From the sequence record NC_073321.1: 43,372 nt of DNA. The stretch is one strand, 5' to 3'. How positions within the stretch are numbered: position 1 is the stretch's first letter; every line of letters starts with the position of its first letter. The position numbers were made by a program, and so were the translations under genes. This document shows, in pieces, positions 13,529-20,117 of the stretch. Origin of the DNA: Escherichia phage ZCEC5. The notes beneath the pieces are model-generated. The model ran no database searches and was not told the origin of the DNA. It worked only from the letters and a program-made list of their open reading frames with translations.

Positions 13529-13941
13529 TGGGCTATTTCGAGGACTTAACAAAAGCGTTCGATGTGCCGCTGGTAGCCTTCGGAACAACCAACAGCATCA
13601 AAGTAGCGCTTGAAAACATCGACGCGCCGACGTCAACTGATACGCCGTATCTGGCAAGTTACATGTTACTGGCAGATACGGAACAGGCGGATTTGTTCTT
13701 CACGGAACAACGCTCTGGTATCTATCAGGTCGATATTAACTACGCATCGGTGAAAGGTAGCGCGCCAATCAATAAAATGGCAGACTTACTTAACACGGCG
13801 TTTAAAGCAGGTAAGTCATTTTCACGTAACGACATCTGCGCCGAGGTTCAATCGGTTAGCCTGGGGCCGCTGATTGTAGAAAACGGATGGGCCAAACGGC
13901 CATTGTCAATTAACTTTATCGCATTCACCAAGAGGCTGTGA
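13525..13941 (+). CDS. Tail terminator protein (putative)
   Basis: Position immediately upstream of major tail protein. Confidence 0.45.
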   Translation: MMGYFEDLTKAFDVPLVAFGTTNSIKVALENIDAPTSTDTPYLASYMLLADTEQADLFFTEQRSGIYQVDINYASVKGSAPINKMADLLNTAFKAGKSFSRNDICAEVQSVSLGPLIVENGWAKRPLSINFIAFTKRL

Positions 13942-13943
13942 AT

Positions 13944-15110
13944 ATGGCTACAACTCCTTTTAAGGGCGCGAATACCGCGCAATTCTATGTGGCGGAAGTG
14001 ACCCCGGGCGTAACACCAAGTAACCCGGTCTGGTCGCCGTTGCGTAACACTGGCGGCGTTCCGGCCATTACCCGCGACACGCTGACCTCCAACGAACTGG
14101 ACGGCAGCCGTGAAACTACGTCCATCCGCACCGGTAACAAACAGGTTAGTGGAGAATATGCCATCGAGCTTAGCTCGAAAAGCCAGGACGACTGGTTGGC
14201 TGGGGCTTTAGGTTCTACGTGGCAATCCGGTGTATCCTTGACTGACCTGTCAATTACCGTAGCACCGGCAGGCAAGACGTTCACCCGTGCTGATGGCAGC
14301 TTCATTACTGACGGTGTGGAAGTAGGCGACCTGATTGCGTTCACCGACTTAACGGGTGATAACGCCAAACCGTTTATCGTTACTGCGGTAGAGGCACTGG
14401 TAGTTACCGGCGCGGGCATTCAGCACACCCTCACCACAGAGACAGCCACTACCGCGGCTAAAACCGGCGACAAACTGGAAACCGGTAGCCAGTGTAAGAC
14501 GTTCTCTATTCTCACCTGGTACAAAGGCCAGTGCGGCGGGGCTGACGCGTACACACTGACCAAAGGTGTGGAAGTTTCTGGTTTTACCATCGAACAGGCT
14601 GTTAACGCGATGGTAACTGGCAGCTTCCCGTTCATCGGTCGCAGTCAGGAGATTCTCGCCACGCAGCCGTCTGGTTCTGACTTCTCCTCTGTTACGTTTG
14701 GTGACGAGCCGTTCTCCTCGGTCGACGTTTCCGTGTTCGATGGCTCAACGCCGTTGCGCTGCGACAGCCTGACCATCACCAACGATAACAGCGCGTCCGC
14801 TCAGTTCGAACTGGGCAACACTAACGTAGCGTTTGTGGAGCGTAGCCGTGCGGCTAACACCTTCTCCATCTCCGGTAAGCTGTACGACATGGCGATGATT
14901 CAGAAGTTTATCAACGAGCAGCAGGTAGAGATTAACTCTATTCTGACGGGGGTAAACGGTGCTATGTCTTTCAGTTTGAAACGCGCAGAACTTACAGCGG
15001 TTACGCCAGAAATATCTGGCCCGGAATCAATTACGCAAAGCATAGAAGGACAGTCAACAGGTAACCAGTACCAGTCGTCTATCATTATTCAGCGCATCAC
15101 CTACGCATAA
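13944..15110 (+). CDS. Major tail protein
   Basis: 388 aa, T/S/G-rich, upstream of chaperone and tape measure genes; RBS AAGAGG (GTG at 13938 also possible). Confidence 0.65.
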   Translation: MATTPFKGANTAQFYVAEVTPGVTPSNPVWSPLRNTGGVPAITRDTLTSNELDGSRETTSIRTGNKQVSGEYAIELSSKSQDDWLAGALGSTWQSGVSLTDLSITVAPAGKTFTRADGSFITDGVEVGDLIAFTDLTGDNAKPFIVTAVEALVVTGAGIQHTLTTETATTAAKTGDKLETGSQCKTFSILTWYKGQCGGADAYTLTKGVEVSGFTIEQAVNAMVTGSFPFIGRSQEILATQPSGSDFSSVTFGDEPFSSVDVSVFDGSTPLRCDSLTITNDNSASAQFELGNTNVAFVERSRAANTFSISGKLYDMAMIQKFINEQQVEINSILTGVNGAMSFSLKRAELTAVTPEISGPESITQSIEGQSTGNQYQSSIIIQRITYA

Positions 15111-15315: not shown

Positions 15316-15538
15316 CAATATTACTCCTGTACTCCCGTAACTTCTCCAGACTTTCAATTGCTTCTGCTAAGTCGGTTCCGGAGTCTTTGTGACCGCGCAG
15401 ACCCATACACAGCAGTTTCTTTAACGCATGCTGTAGCGCCGGGTCACGGATATCGAAGGCGCGTAGCACATCATAGACGTCTACTGTCATGGTGCTGCCG
15501 TGGGTGTTTGTCATTGTGCGGTTGTATTTTGAAGTCAT
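15308..15538 (-). CDS. Hypothetical protein (76 aa)
   Basis: ATGA-coupled to upstream metallophosphoesterase gene. Confidence 0.45.
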   Translation of the reverse strand: MTSKYNRTMTNTHGSTMTVDVYDVLRAFDIRDPALQHALKKLLCMGLRGHKDSGTDLAEAIESLEKLREYRSNIDE

Positions 15539-16665
15539 CCCAGCATCTCCGGTGAAATAGTTAAACGTGCGACCTCGCCATATTCGGCGCTATAAGTAAT
15601 CACATTTGCGCTACGGCCTGACATCCATCCGCCTCTGGATGCGTAGGCGTCTTTGGCCGCTAAGGTGCGGTGTTGCTCAACAATCATATTACGGCTTTCT
15701 ACAATCTTCTGGTGGTGCAGGTGGCCTACGTGGGCGTAGCTGTAAACACTCTCGCCGAACGCTTTGCGGAACTTAGCAATCATAACCGGTTCGATAGCAT
15801 CGAATCGTGCTTTATGCCCGTGGTGAAAGAACAATGTCGTTTTGCCGTGCTGCACCATCTTATAAACATCCGGCGATGTATCCACGGTAACTCGGCTGTC
15901 TTTTGAGTATAAAGTCGTGAACATTTCAGCCAGCCATACGGAGCCGACAGGGTCGTGATTTCCTTGCACGATAAGCAAGCGAACATTTTTGTGCTTAACG
16001 AGGGCCATATCGACAACACGGCGGACCATACGAATCATGTAGCGGACCAGTTTCTGGTAGCGGGTATCCGCATCCAACACATGGCGCGACTCCGGCGTAA
16101 CGGCATCAAGACTATCAAAGTGCGCGAAGTCCCCCAGCAGGTTAATAACTCCTGTTCCTGCATCTGGTGCTTTCTGAAACGCAGCATCGAACCACCGAGA
16201 GAACAGGTCTTCCGCAATCTTCATATCCCAGTCGTCGCCGCTCTCGTCCGCCCACGCCAGCATACCGAGATGAAAATCAGATACCGTGTAAAGATTGAGT
16301 AGCTTGTCGTCGCGTTTAGCGCGGGCGGCTTTAACAGGCGCAACGGGGGTAATCTCTGACTTCATGCCTTCAACCACGGCTTTCATCAACTCAATCTGCC
16401 GTTCGGCATCGGTGTCGGTCTTAACCCATTGCAACTTAGTGTTGCCAAACTCGTCCACCAGGGACGACGTTCCTTTAATTTTGTAGCCGTCCGGCACAAG
16501 GTGGCTAACGTCGCGCCCGTGGCCTACGCCTTTCTTAGCTAGCTTCGCTTTACGAATACGAATAACGCGGTCGGAGATGCCGTATTTACGGGCGATATCG
16601 ATAATTTTTGTTCCGGCGTTCAATTCTTCCTGTAGCTGTTCGTCGGTTATTTTCTTCTGGGCCAT
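15535..16665 (-). CDS. HTH-domain protein fused to Mre11/SbcD-like calcineurin-type metallophosphoesterase
   Basis: Motifs I-V in order: YTVSDFHLG, LLGDFAHFD, VQGNHD, FHHGH, VGHLHH; N-terminal helix-turn-helix-like region (IIDIARKYGISDRVIRIRK); RBS GAGGAAG. Confidence 0.7.
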   Translation of the reverse strand: MAQKKITDEQLQEELNAGTKIIDIARKYGISDRVIRIRKAKLAKKGVGHGRDVSHLVPDGYKIKGTSSLVDEFGNTKLQWVKTDTDAERQIELMKAVVEGMKSEITPVAPVKAARAKRDDKLLNLYTVSDFHLGMLAWADESGDDWDMKIAEDLFSRWFDAAFQKAPDAGTGVINLLGDFAHFDSLDAVTPESRHVLDADTRYQKLVRYMIRMVRRVVDMALVKHKNVRLLIVQGNHDPVGSVWLAEMFTTLYSKDSRVTVDTSPDVYKMVQHGKTTLFFHHGHKARFDAIEPVMIAKFRKAFGESVYSYAHVGHLHHQKIVESRNMIVEQHRTLAAKDAYASRGGWMSGRSANVITYSAEYGEVARLTISPEMLG

Positions 16666-16703
16666 GCTTACTTCCTCGTGTTTAGGATTTGTCCTATACT
16701 AGC

Positions 16704-16910
16704 TCACTTCTCGTTAACATTCGAGTTGCACGCCCAGATTAAAATAAATACCCACGGCAGCAGAACCCAACCAAGAAACAGGTTAGCCATGAATATAGCT
16801 AACTTCGCTTTATGGTTACGGAAGTACGCAACCAGGAAAGGTGCGAAATAAGCGAGCAGTGCAAACAGAATTAAGGAAACTGGTAAACTGGACATTTTAA
16901 ACCCCTTCAT
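16704..16910 (-). CDS. Superinfection immunity (Imm-like) membrane protein
   Basis: Two TM helices with pattern YFAPFLVAYFRNHKAKLAIFMANLFLGWVLLPWVFILIWA, recalled to match the T4 Imm-like family; start possibly at 16895 (RBS AAGGGG). Confidence 0.55.
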   Translation of the reverse strand: MKGFKMSSLPVSLILFALLAYFAPFLVAYFRNHKAKLAIFMANLFLGWVLLPWVFILIWACNSNVNEK

Positions 16911-17069: not shown

Positions 17070-17486
17070 ATGAAACTTTCTGATTTTTATTTCGAAGAGA
17101 AAGCACTGGTAGGCAAGAAGATGCCGATTCTGCTGCCAAACGGCGAAGACTCCGGTGAGTGGCTTAACGTCGTAAGCCCTGACGCAGATGTCGCCGTTAA
17201 AGCGGGGCGTGCTTTCATTATCGCGTACCGACGCGGGTTGGCGCGCTTTGAAGAACTGGAAAAAGCCGCCAAAGAATCCGGCGACTATACTGAATATAAT
17301 TTGGCCATTAACGAACTGGCGGAAGACCTCAACCGGCAACTTGCGGCGGAAGTCGTAAACGGCTGGAGCTTTGACGAGCCTTTCTCTAAGGAAGCGTTTA
17401 ACAAGTTGCTCGACCAGTTCAAGGCATTAGGCACACAGGTAGCCGCGTTCCATAACGCTGAGCGCAAAGCATTACAGGAAAAGTAG
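17070..17486 (+). CDS. Tail assembly chaperone (gpG-like)
   Basis: 138 aa acidic protein directly upstream of tape measure; followed by -1 frame ORF. Confidence 0.55.
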   Translation: MKLSDFYFEEKALVGKKMPILLPNGEDSGEWLNVVSPDADVAVKAGRAFIIAYRRGLARFEELEKAAKESGDYTEYNLAINELAEDLNRQLAAEVVNGWSFDEPFSKEAFNKLLDQFKALGTQVAAFHNAERKALQEK

Positions 17487-17851
17487 ACGCGCTGTACAGG
17501 TTCGCCTCCTACGAGTTTGTGGATAAGCATAAAATCATAGAGTTTGATTCTATAGCCGACGGTCACGAACAGGCGCTTATCGCAATGGGTGTAATCGATA
17601 AGAAAAAACGTGCAGCGCGACGGGGTGGGCCAGAATGCCCGCCCCTTTTTATATCCACCTTTGAGATGTACTGTGACATTAAGTTTACGCGACACGTGCG
17701 CGAGGACGCTGTAGTATTGTTCGCAAGAGAATCCGTTACTTGGCAAGACCTGAAAGCCTATCTCGATGTTACGCAAAAACAGCTTAGCCTGTTCGAGATA
17801 GACATTATCATGGGCTTAGAAGCAATCTTTGAAGGTAGAAACAATGACTGA
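17462..17851 (+). CDS. Tail assembly chaperone -1 frameshift extension (gpGT-like), candidate
   Basis: -1 frame open from 17462, overlaps last 8 codons of the G ORF and ends overlapping the tape-measure start; weak slippery site CAG GAA AAG TAG. Confidence 0.35.
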   Translation, partial: AQSITGKVDALYRFASYEFVDKHKIIEFDSIADGHEQALIAMGVIDKKKRAARRGGPECPPLFISTFEMYCDIKFTRHVREDAVVLFARESVTWQDLKAYLDVTQKQLSLFEIDIIMGLEAIFEGRNND

Positions 17852-20117
17852 TATCGCTAGCTTGATAGTACGAGTATCCGCAACCGGCGTCGATAAAGTC
17901 ACATCACAACTGAACGGGCTTACTAAAGCCGCAGGCGCTGCGGCTGCCGCCGTTGTCAGCCTGGAAACCGCTAAGCAGGTGTTCAGTGCGCTGGTGGACT
18001 CCCAGCGAAACTTCGATAAGCTGAACTCCGGCCTCATCACAATGACCGGGAGCGCTGAGAACGCGGCTAAGGCTTTCAGCGTCCTGCAACAGTTCGCGAA
18101 AGAAACCCCATACGGTCTTAACCAGGCGGTCGAGGGCTTCACTAAGCTGGTGGCCCTCGGTCTGAACCCCAGCAAAGAGGCGTTAATCTCCTACGGCAAC
18201 ACCGCAGCAGCTATGGGTAAAGACCTTAATCAGATGATTGAGGCTGTGGCGGACGCCAGTACATTTGAGTTTGAGCGACTGAAAGAGTTTGGTATCAAGT
18301 CGTCACAGCAGGCAGATACAGTGTCGTTCACGTTCCGCGGTGTTACCACCACGGTTAAGAAGAACTCCGAAGAGATCCAGAAATACCTTCTGAATATTGG
18401 TAACACTGATTTCGCCGGGGCGATGGAGACGCGCTCGAAGACCTTAGATGGTCAGTTGTCGAGCCTTGCCGACTCCTTCGATGGTCTTGTTCTTGCGGTA
18501 GCGCAATCCGGTTTTGGCGACGCCGTGGGCGAACAGGCGGCAACAGCGGAAGATGCTATTACCGCACTCACCGACGCCATAGCGTCTAATGAGATAGCAG
18601 CCACGCTCCAGGATTGGGCGACGCTGTTCAATGAATCGTTCAAGTTTATTTCTGATGCCCTGAATGACCTGGCATACGATACCGAGGACAAATCCGTGGA
18701 TATGTCCGACTCGCTGGGGACTATACCGGACGCTATCCGAGAGTGGTTGCCTGACATCCAGCAGACATTCCATGAAGTTATTGCGTGGTTCCAGCGTATT
18801 GACGATTACGCGGTAGCGTTAGGGCAGACCCTTGCCGACGTGTTTGACCCGAGCAAAACGGCAGCGCTCACATTTAAAAACCTGACCGCTGAGGCTGACG
18901 CCGCATATGCCGCCAGCATAAAGCGCGCAGAGGCCGAATCCCAGGCCATTACCAACAGGTCTAAGCAGCGTAAGAAAGAAATTGAGGAACAGCGCAAGCA
19001 ATATGACGAGCGCAAGAAGCAAGAAATTGACTTAGCCAGCCTTGTTAATAATAAGGGCGGAGCTGGCGGGGCGGGAAATACCGACGATAAAGCGGCAAAA
19101 GCAGCCGCTAAGAAAGCTGAGCAGTTGCGGAATCAGGCGCAAGACTACCTCGACACTTTGGCCCGTCAGAACAACGACGAGTTAAAGGCTATTGACGCCC
19201 AGGAACAGCAGAAACTGGCTAAAGCAAAAGAGTTTTACAGCCAGGGCGCGTTGTCTCTGAAAGAATACGAGCAAGCAAAAACAGCTATCGTCCTCGAAGC
19301 GGGACAAAAACGACAAGATGAACTGGATAAACGCCAGAAAGAAGCCTTGGAAAAGCAGCAGAAAGGCGACGACTTCATGTCTCAGATTATGGGCCAGAAT
19401 GCCACTGAGCTTGAGCTTCTAGACATCCAGGAACAGCAGAAACTGGCGGTCGCGGATAAGTACCGTGAGCAGGGGCTTATTAGTGAGACGCAGTATCAGG
19501 CCGCGCTTAACGCCATCAACGAGCAATACGCCACCAAGCGCGCCGACGCAACGGCAACCGCCTTCGGTAACATGGCCTCAAACATCGGGTCTGCGTTGGG
19601 CGAGGCTTCTGGTGCGTATAAAGCGTTCGCTATCGTACAGGCCACTATAGCCACGTACACCGCAGCTATTGAGGCGTACAAGTCTACGGCGGCTATCCCT
19701 GTTGTTGGTCCGTTCCTTGCCCCTGTAGCCGCTGCCGCAGCCGTTGGGGCGGGTATGGCGCAGATTTCCGCTATCAGGTCCGCGCGTGAACAGGGCGGTC
19801 AGTTATCCGCGGGGCAGGCTTCTACTATCGCTGAACGTGGTAAACCCGAAGTTATCATGCCCGCTGGCGCATCGCGTGTGCGCACCGCGCAGCAGATGAA
19901 AGAAATTATGGGGCAAAACGGGTCTTCTTCCGGACCGTCCAATGTTACTATCGTAAACAACACGAGTTCTCAAATCGGCAACGTATCCACTGAGCAAGAT
20001 GATGAGGGCCGTTTGCGTATCATCATTGAAGAACAGGTTGCCGCGTCTTTGCAGAACAGCAACAGTAAGATTAGCAAGGCTCGCAAGGCCACAAGAAACG
20101 CGCCGGGGTTCAAGTAA
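17844..20117 (+). CDS. Tail tape measure protein
   Basis: 757 aa, A/Q/K-rich with long predicted helices; RBS GAAGG before ATG 17844. Confidence 0.85.
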   Translation: MTDIASLIVRVSATGVDKVTSQLNGLTKAAGAAAAAVVSLETAKQVFSALVDSQRNFDKLNSGLITMTGSAENAAKAFSVLQQFAKETPYGLNQAVEGFTKLVALGLNPSKEALISYGNTAAAMGKDLNQMIEAVADASTFEFERLKEFGIKSSQQADTVSFTFRGVTTTVKKNSEEIQKYLLNIGNTDFAGAMETRSKTLDGQLSSLADSFDGLVLAVAQSGFGDAVGEQAATAEDAITALTDAIASNEIAATLQDWATLFNESFKFISDALNDLAYDTEDKSVDMSDSLGTIPDAIREWLPDIQQTFHEVIAWFQRIDDYAVALGQTLADVFDPSKTAALTFKNLTAEADAAYAASIKRAEAESQAITNRSKQRKKEIEEQRKQYDERKKQEIDLASLVNNKGGAGGAGNTDDKAAKAAAKKAEQLRNQAQDYLDTLARQNNDELKAIDAQEQQKLAKAKEFYSQGALSLKEYEQAKTAIVLEAGQKRQDELDKRQKEALEKQQKGDDFMSQIMGQNATELELLDIQEQQKLAVADKYREQGLISETQYQAALNAINEQYATKRADATATAFGNMASNIGSALGEASGAYKAFAIVQATIATYTAAIEAYKSTAAIPVVGPFLAPVAAAAAVGAGMAQISAIRSAREQGGQLSAGQASTIAERGKPEVIMPAGASRVRTAQQMKEIMGQNGSSSGPSNVTIVNNTSSQIGNVSTEQDDEGRLRIIIEEQVAASLQNSNSKISKARKATRNAPGFK

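Follow-up and report, generated by a model that had tools for sequence, protein, structure and literature searches.

Does a ribosome that has translated the tail assembly chaperone gene G of Escherichia phage ZCEC5 go on, at times, into a second reading frame, and if so, on what signal? In the genome of this phage (sequence record NC_073321.1, analysed over its full 43,372 nucleotides and referred to as the window), G ends inside another open frame, T, which lies in the -1 register and runs on to the start of the tape measure gene. A reading made from the letters and open reading frames only (the sequence-only reading) had suggested a likely -1 frameshift here, on a slippery site that is not canonical. 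Comparing the locus with its relatives, we consider it likely that a programmed -1 frameshift on the tetranucleotide A_AAG, aided by an adjacent stop codon and a long-range RNA helix, yields both G and a GT fusion. The G/GT frameshift itself is already known, yet it is annotated inconsistently among relatives. What is new here, judged from aligned genomes, is the A_AAG tetramer as the conserved unit, a fixed spacer of 5 nucleotides (nt) and a long-range helix supported by covariation.

An open -1 frame joins G to the tape measure gene

The G open reading frame (ORF) ends in CAG GAA AAG TAG, within the junction sequence GCA TTA CAG GAA AAG TAG ACG CGC TGT ACA GG. In the -1 frame a TGA at 17459-17461 is followed by an open frame from 17462 to the TGA at 17849-17851, which shares eight codons with G, continues for 122 more and overlaps at its end the tape measure ATG at 17844 (ATGACTGA). 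The sequence, the ORF list and our script agreed on the extent of G and on the extent of the -1 frame, the latter as the sequence-only reading had given it. The three genes or segments concerned are as follows.

17070..17486, + strand: G gene, tail assembly chaperone of 138 amino acids, the product of standard decoding (ORF list, Pfam, PHROG)
17483..17851, + strand: T segment in the -1 frame, from GTA (17483-17485) to TGA (17849-17851) (translation, Pfam, PHROG)
17844..20117, + strand: tape measure protein gene (PHROG 1538, Pfam TMP_3; same start in the annotation of relatives)

To place this junction among its relatives, we gathered about 150 related loci, the sources being annotated phages, IMG/VR and metagenomes, and 117 of these loci were distinct over the junction region; codon entropy was computed on 78 distinct sequences of equal length. 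Among these 78 relatives, coding-type conservation of the -1 frame begins at the first codon after the junction, with V139, A141 and L142 invariant. By simple arithmetic, the probability of about 129 codons remaining open by chance is (61/64)^129 = 0.002. This probability, the conservation and the homology described below together place the open -1 frame beyond chance.

The G protein matched Pfam PF08748 (Phage_TAC_4) above the gathering score (E = 8.2e-6) and positions 1-138 of the 259 positions of PHROG 15027 (E = 7.7e-71). The -1 product matched Pfam PF23812 (Phage_TAC_18; E = 8.7e-19, 67.9 bits against a cutoff of 27) and positions 135-258 of the same PHROG, named 'tail assembly chaperone'. 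As one 259-position profile covers both G and T, fused G+T proteins have evidently been deposited for this family already. The downstream gene was assigned by PHROG 1538 (E = 5.9e-193) and a Pfam TMP_3 match, and the tail tube gene was found at 13938-15110 (Pfam Phage_tube_2), which places the G and T ORFs between tube and tape measure. The G/GT layout recognised in the sequence-only reading is thus borne out: TAC_4 and TAC_18 proteins are encoded just upstream of the tape measure gene, and a joined coding sequence (CDS) is annotated in relatives.

The predicted GT fusion joins 17070-17483 to 17483-17851, with base 17483 read twice, and comprises 260 amino acids with the junction ...ALQEK|VDALYRF.... 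An exact look-up of this 260-residue protein in the protein collection returned no entry, and G alone was present, identical to the K1G 'tail assembly chaperone' ADA82266.1. The window belongs to the genus Kagunavirus (Guernseyvirinae) and shares about 94% nucleotide identity with phages of this genus such as K1G, fKuEco01 and Bas74, and this identity to E. coli phages points to E. coli as the host.

Existing records differ in how they treat T. A joined (ribosomal-slippage) two-piece G+T CDS is annotated in the RefSeq records of K1G, fKuEco01, Pantoea phage AH01 and Shewanella phage 3/49, and the GenBank records of Jersey, SETP13, Snoke, Shashou, Bas74 and Bas76 give T as a separate gene with a CTG or TTG start 8 nt past the stop. 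Our literature search on frameshifting in Guernseyvirinae, Jerseyvirus and Kagunavirus turned up a single remark, in the Shashou announcement, that there is 'no canonical slippery sequence' in this subfamily (PMC6776780). For the same spot, the GenBank notes of Snoke and Shashou mention a 'predicted secondary structure' and refer to Anany et al. 2015, and given this citation part of the structural idea may already have been published.

The conserved slip element is a tetranucleotide

The eight codons shared by the two frames contain one slip-prone string, G_GAA_AAG (17477-17483), with the stop codon directly 3' of it. The elements of this site are listed below.

17480..17483, + strand: putative slip motif A_AAG, within G_GAA_AAG (17477-17483), conserved in about 150 loci
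17484..17486, + strand: 0-frame stop TAG, adjoining the slip motif on its 3' side, inside the 5-nt spacer

The string departs from the canonical X_XXY_YYZ heptamer in that its XXX is G, G, A; a canonical heptamer was found only in Raoultella phage RP180, the loci L099, L100 and L170, and a Shewanella-phage-like group. In every locus with an intact G frame (about 150), G ends in xxA AAG. The codon ahead of AAG is GAA in the majority and otherwise GCA, GTA, TCA, CAA, GGA or AAA, its third base always being A, and the base 5' of that codon is G, C or A. Third-position entropy in the 78 sequences was 0 at codons 137-139, 141 and 142 and 1-2 bits almost everywhere else. At codon 137 it was 0.00 though the residue varies (E/A/V/K/G/S, and Q in one metagenome locus), and codon 138 had zero entropy at all positions, being always AAG and never AAA.

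Because the P-site codons vary and A_AAG is fixed, the conserved slip element is the tetranucleotide, and the heptamer is ruled out as the conserved unit. The sequence-only reading was right, then, about where the slip site lies and about its non-canonical status, but the functional unit appears to be A_AAG rather than a degenerate heptamer.

The stop codon (TAG, TAA or, rarely, TGA) follows AAG directly in all loci except one. The idea that TGA is never used was refuted by two loci (L153 and L154) with TGA in place of TAR. The single exception, L167 (metagenome Ga0065715_10089440), reads GCA AAG TTA TAG CGC TGT, with its stop one codon later and overlapping the first base of the helix arm described in the next section; the distance from AAG to GCGCUG is still 5 nt. 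An upstream stimulator resembling a Shine-Dalgarno (SD) sequence, of the dnaX/IS911 type, was rejected: the 8 nt ahead of the motif (alignment columns 1-8) vary across relatives.

Among Z_ZZN tetramers, A_AAG shifts by far the most readily in E. coli, where a single tRNA-Lys (anticodon UUU) decodes both AAA and AAG (PMC4066793). Frameshifting is about 0.15% with a tetramer alone and reaches up to 5.6% for A_AAG when a structure follows 5 nt further on (PMC4066793). A_AAG behind a P-site codon that does not re-pair is known from IS1222 (G_CGA_AAG) and Bacillus cdd (A_CGA_AAG) (PMC5009743).

Phage RP180 (L017/L042; locus 1906-1917/1006-1017) carries CAG GGA AAG TAG, which contains the lambda heptamer G_GGA_AAG. 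Its proteins are 97-98% identical to those of the window, and the two sites differ by a single A-to-G change, which also turns Glu137 into Gly.

A long-range helix begins 5 nt after the motif

Directly behind the spacer, the hexamer GCGYUG starts exactly 5 nt after AAG and does not vary, not even at synonymous positions. Ala141 is encoded by GCG in 78/78 and Leu142 by YTG in 78/78, whereas all synonyms are used for Ala and Leu elsewhere in these genes. As GCGYUG is coding in the -1 frame only, the constraint there reflects selection on the nucleotides themselves. The perfect complement of GCGYUG, CARCGC, occurs at fixed downstream sites, which lie, counted from the stop, at about +125 in one set of phages (the window among them) and at about +198 in another. 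In the window the two arms are:

17488..17497, + strand: 5' arm of the long-range helix, CGCGCUGUAC (folds, pair counts, synonymous constraint)
17610..17619, + strand: 3' arm of the long-range helix, GUGCAGCGCG, in the variable linker of T (RNAduplex, entropy)

These arms pair over 10 base pairs (bp), one of them G-U, and the helix starts 4-5 nt after AAG. It was present in both the minimum free energy (MFE) and the centroid folds, of 17484-17630 as well as of 17470-17670. The duplex of the arms (RNAduplex) reached -20.0 kcal/mol, compared with a mean of -12.3 in 200 shuffles that kept the T protein and its codon usage (p ~0.01). The fold of 17470-17670 had z = -2.98, partly owing to a GC hairpin further downstream. 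A compact local hairpin or pseudoknot after the stop was rejected because the GCGC...GCGC pairing it would use occurs in some sequences only and is not conserved, and because the folds favour the long-range helix.

The helix covaries and its 3' arm moves between clades

Covariation was assessed in two groups of sequences: group A (57 sequences including the window, in natural fixed columns, 10 pairs tested) and group B (54 sequences, Jersey/K1H/phiEap-2/AH01-like, 13 pairs tested). In group A, 90.4% of cells were paired, compared with 14-56% when the 3' partner was slid by 1-3 columns. Compensatory double changes occurred at 5/10 pairs, and 0/500 shuffles reached the observed covariation score. 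At pair 21:144, 38 sequences had CG, 19 had UA and no sequence was unpaired; pair 25:140 was AU in 28 and UA in 15, and pair 26:139 was CG in 33, UA in 9 and UG in 5. Given the group A alignment of 247 columns and no prompting, RNAalifold returned just two elements, the long-range helix and a small adjacent hairpin, the latter being the 4-bp core of a terminator-like hairpin described at the end.

In group B the helix is formed by GCGCUGUAUGAA with UUCAUACAGCGC, and the 3' arm lies about 75 nt further downstream than in group A. Here 87.6% of cells were paired (17-48% when slid by 1-3 columns), with double changes at 5 pairs. As cross-controls, each group was examined at the 3' arm position of the other, and both were at background (29% and 41% paired). 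Synonymous constraint on a 3' arm was likewise confined to the clade that uses that arm: in group A, where the arm sits in a hypervariable linker of T, its codons had third-position entropies of 0.13 and 0.00 while their residues vary (A/T/P/I and A/T). A third arrangement was found in the more distant Shewanella-phage-like group, which has A_AAA_AAG TAG and the same 5-nt spacer; the arms in this group are GCCCUGCU and, about 75 nt downstream, AGCAGGGC. All three clades have the 5' edge at the same distance from AAG, whereas their 3' arms lie at about +75, +125 or +198.

Changes at the distal end of the helix fall into the haplotypes UAC/GUG, CUC/-AG, UUU/AAA and UAU/AUA, and the inner pairs changed from C-G to U-A at two pairs and from G-C to A-U once. 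Such distinct haplotypes indicate several separate compensations in these sequences. G-U pairs are frequent (U-G in 30/57 sequences at one pair), which argues for an RNA helix on the + strand only.

Proposed mechanism

In the mechanism we favour, two tail assembly chaperones would be made from one start codon, G with 138 amino acids and the GT fusion with 260. The majority of ribosomes would read GAA AAG and terminate at the TAG (17484). A small fraction would slip by -1 on A_AAG, the tRNA-Lys moving from AAG (17481-17483) to AAA (17480-17482), and would then read GUA GAC GCG... on to 17851. If the slip takes place with AAG in the A site, the helix (5' arm 17488-17497, partner 112 nt on) would at that moment stand at the mRNA entrance of the ribosome. 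The stop abutting AAG and the helix together probably lift the slip rate into a useful percent range, with the stop perhaps contributing a 'shifty stop' pause. In the window the P-site tRNA-Glu could partly re-pair too (GAA to GGA, with a middle G-U); such re-pairing appears dispensable, because relatives keep A_AAG with codons that do not re-pair.

The motif, the 5-nt spacer and the stem geometry, as in IS3-type and dnaX-type signals, lead us to read the site as a -1 cassette of the tetramer type. We expect a frameshift rate in the low percent range, because of the 30:1 ratio in lambda and the values for A_AAG with a structure in E. coli. Since ribosomes that do not shift would terminate in the spacer, and T would be translated rarely, the helix may persist between ribosomes. 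On balance, and with less assurance than for the frameshift itself, we lean towards a wider view in which the sites of Guernseyvirinae and related siphophages form a distinct, conserved cassette: the helix would be the real stimulator, its distal arm relocated in evolution among at least three places in the T coding sequence, and termination in the spacer would preserve a helix that folds slowly.

Several points weigh against this mechanism. The accessible literature on this phage and its subfamily contains no experiment on the fusion protein, the RNA structure or the frequency of frameshifting. Taken by itself, the fold of 17484-17630 has no unusual overall stability (z = -0.67), and duplex p values of single sequences against synonymous shuffles are often just 0.05-0.3. 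Many of the aligned sequences are near-identical, and the counts of paired cells overstate the number of independent compensatory events. Loci were assigned to groups by the position of their best duplex, which leans toward structure; this circularity is limited by the counting in fixed columns, by RNAalifold and by the cross-controls. With a loop of 112 nt to close, the helix may be slow to fold and would be unusual as a stimulator. It could also serve mRNA stability, protection from Rho or an interplay with the hairpin at 17622-17645, roles that leave its fixed spacing from AAG unexplained.

Alternative explanations for the junction

The alternative that survives best, though we think it unlikely, is a relaxed heptamer of the lambda type, in which tandem slippage on G_GAA_AAG places tRNA-Glu on GGA, no RNA structure is needed and the helix is irrelevant. 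The string is indeed one base away from lambda G_GGA_AAG, which RP180 has exactly; G_GAA_AAG is present in 64 of 89 loci, and GAA is always preceded by a G though the residue to which that base belongs varies (Q/L/S/A/M/K). However, at least 15 loci have C_GCA_AAG or A_GCA_AAG, and others have G_GTA_AAG, G_TCA_AAG or C_CAA_AAG, where no P-site re-pairing is possible, and these loci retain the same stop, spacer and helix. The fixation of the 5' arm at synonymous sites and the covariation also argue for selection on the helix, and tetramers free of a stimulator are barely shifty in E. coli (PMC4066793). In this particular phage, P-site re-pairing may nevertheless add to the efficiency of slippage on A_AAG.

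Somewhat less probable again is that the stop is the main stimulator, a 'shifty stop' at which a P-site tRNA-Lys moves from AAG to AAA while a slowly read stop codon occupies the A site. The helix would then serve mRNA stability, block Rho loading on the rarely translated T or modulate the terminator-like hairpin, which lies 2 nt past the 3' arm. Of about 150 loci, only one lacks a stop abutting AAG, and stops 3' of shift sites are a known class of stimulator (Weiss 1987, cited in PMC5009743). In the one exception, L167, it is the stop that has moved by a codon, whereas the 5-nt spacing from AAG to the helix has been retained. Furthermore, a fixed 5' edge with a 3' arm that is mobile across three clades is what a stimulator predicts, and not what a role in stability or against Rho predicts. 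The stop and the helix are not mutually exclusive as stimulators, and the mechanism we favour includes both.

Independent translation of T, from the GTG at 17519 or from a CTG or TTG 8 nt past the stop (17492), would dispense with frameshifting altogether, the AGGA in CAGGAAAAG acting as the SD sequence. Six of the records named above (Jersey, SETP13, Snoke, Shashou, Bas74 and Bas76) are annotated in this way, and 17/111 distinct sequences have TTG at codon 142 with AGGA upstream. Yet neither the start nor the SD is conserved. Depending on the relative, the earliest potential start in the -1 frame is found between codons 139 and 173 or is missing altogether, codon 142 is CTG in 59/78, and relatives with GCA, GTA, TCA or AAA as the P-site codon have no AGGA but keep A_AAG. 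The GTG at 17519 (codon 151), which the sequence-only reading had named as the start to be expected if there were no fusion, fares no better: it is GTG in 12/78 distinct relatives and GTC in Bas74, it has no SD ahead of it in the window, and it sits 12 codons past conserved residues of T. The invariance of the junction residues V139, A141 and L142, and the treatment of G+T as a single 259-position family in PHROG 15027, also speak for translation through the junction. We therefore regard independent initiation as highly improbable.

Slippage of RNA polymerase on the A-run at the site (AAAA in the window and as many as 6-7 A in certain relatives), giving a -1 mRNA in place of ribosomal slippage, can practically be set aside, as four A's are far under the usual productive run length (review PMC5009743), most relatives have just AAA or AAAA before G, and the strict AAG (never AAA) with a fixed helix spacer fits ribosomal slippage.

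Comparison with known frameshift signals

The locus resembles lambda gpG/gpGT in that two ORFs lie upstream of the tape measure gene, the second in the -1 frame and without a start of its own, with a probable tRNA-Lys slip on ...A_AAG near the end of G and a fusion expected at a low percentage. The lambda site is reported to need no downstream structure, whereas a conserved downstream helix is present here. Unlike in lambda, only the tetramer is conserved, the P-site codon does not re-pair in many relatives and the stop abuts the motif. G and T belong to Pfam TAC_4 and TAC_18 and not to the lambda gpG family, and two minus-strand genes stand between the tail tube gene and G. Lambda needs G and GT at a ratio of about 30:1 (PMC5009743).

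The Z_ZZN signals of the IS3 family (IS3, IS1222) are similar in their A_AAG tetramer, in a non-re-pairing P-site codon, as in the IS1222 site cited above, and in a structure about 5 nt downstream, on which the IS signals depend and the phage site would depend too. Two hallmarks of an IS3-type signal were found in the window, the A_AAG at 17480-17483 and a structure shortly after the motif, namely the helix, which starts 4-5 nt after AAG (about 5-7 nt being typical of such signals) and for which stimulation is putative. IS3-family signals attain efficiencies up to about 5-6% in E. coli, with stimulatory hairpins of 17-131 nt (PMC4066793, PMC5009743). The present site differs in belonging to a phage structural-gene cassette rather than a transposase, in having the 0-frame stop within the spacer, and in using, instead of a compact hairpin or pseudoknot, a single helix around a loop of 112 nt, with loops of about 55 or about 180 nt in other clades.

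E. coli dnaX likewise combines a tRNA-Lys slip on A_AAG with a downstream stem after a spacer of 5-6 nt and a nearby 0-frame stop. Unlike dnaX, which has an A_AAA_AAG heptamer and an upstream SD-like stimulator, the phage site has no conserved upstream SD-like element, and the dnaX efficiency of about 50% is far beyond what a GT system needs. In the plant luteovirus barley yellow dwarf virus (BYDV), a stem-loop adjacent to the slip site kisses an element about 4 kb away. The two have in common a stimulatory element (putative in the phage) whose pairing partner is distant in the primary sequence, but here the distant segment itself forms the site-adjacent helix, 0.1-0.2 kb off and in the same ORF.

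Consequences for annotation and for assays

Hundreds of Jersey-, K1G- and SETP-like genomes, many of them from candidates for therapy, annotate T inconsistently, either as a hypothetical protein with a CTG or TTG start or joined to G. The rule A_AAG, stop, N2, GCGYUG offers a simple criterion for joining at the K|V junction. A reporter for frameshifting needs the sequence to at least 17620, preferably 17650, as a short cassette misses the 3' arm. The fragment 17440-17520 that the sequence-only reading had suggested for a dual reporter is without the 3' arm at 17610-17619 and would under-report slippage if the helix stimulates. The lambda virion contains neither gpG nor gpGT (PMC5009743), and for this reason mass spectrometry of virions, also suggested there, would be a poor test for the fusion. 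If the proposed mechanism is correct, the site would be a covariation-supported example of tetramer slippage that occurs naturally in a structural operon of a phage, with a frameshift stimulator whose distal arm 'wanders' in a rarely translated ORF while its proximal edge stays fixed, and it would lend itself to the study of how such an arm relocates.

Terminator-like hairpin, neighbouring genes and distant relatives

Inside the T frame, 2 nt past the 3' arm of the helix, lies one further predicted RNA element.

17622..17645, + strand: terminator-like GC-rich 9-bp hairpin with a T-run (terminator-like score, folds)

The hairpin with its tail (17622-17654, + strand) consists of GGGGTGGGC-CAGAAT-GCCCGCCCC followed by TTTTTATAT, that is, a 9-bp GC stem and a T-run. 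It has a score like that of an intrinsic terminator and appeared in the centroid as well as the MFE fold of 17470-17670. Its GGGC/GCCC core (GPECP codons) is conserved in relatives, and the T-run is not conserved in Snoke-like phages. The hairpin, which may or may not be part of the frameshift signal, could stack on the helix or attenuate transcription into the tape measure gene.

Two minus-strand genes at 15535-16910 separate the tail tube gene from G. They encode a metallophosphoesterase/'DNA repair exonuclease' (376 amino acids) and a membrane protein resembling superinfection-immunity proteins (68 amino acids). With these genes upstream and an intergenic region of 159 nt, G appears to open a new + strand unit.

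Distant TAC_4-like chaperones were found in Vibrio phage 1.117.O, Serratia phage Tlacuache and Pseudomonas phage PaMx74 (L032, L033 and L034). In all three a long -1 ORF precedes the tape measure gene, with other candidate sites, and none is annotated as joined; the candidate in Vibrio phage 1.117.O is GC T_TTT_TTC GAG, and in PaMx74 an annotated terminator overlaps the start of the tape measure gene. In a further relative at 45% identity (L050, IMGVR_UViG_638275545_000001), the G frame as fetched ends after about 100 codons, which may reflect a sequencing frameshift, another start or a truly different arrangement. A scan of genome contigs for related loci gave a single match, a 13-kb contig in a Taishania pollutisoli assembly (L184, NZ_JACVEL010000023.1), whose G/T junction equals that of the SETP13 group of Salmonella phages and which is probably a contaminating phage rather than a prophage.

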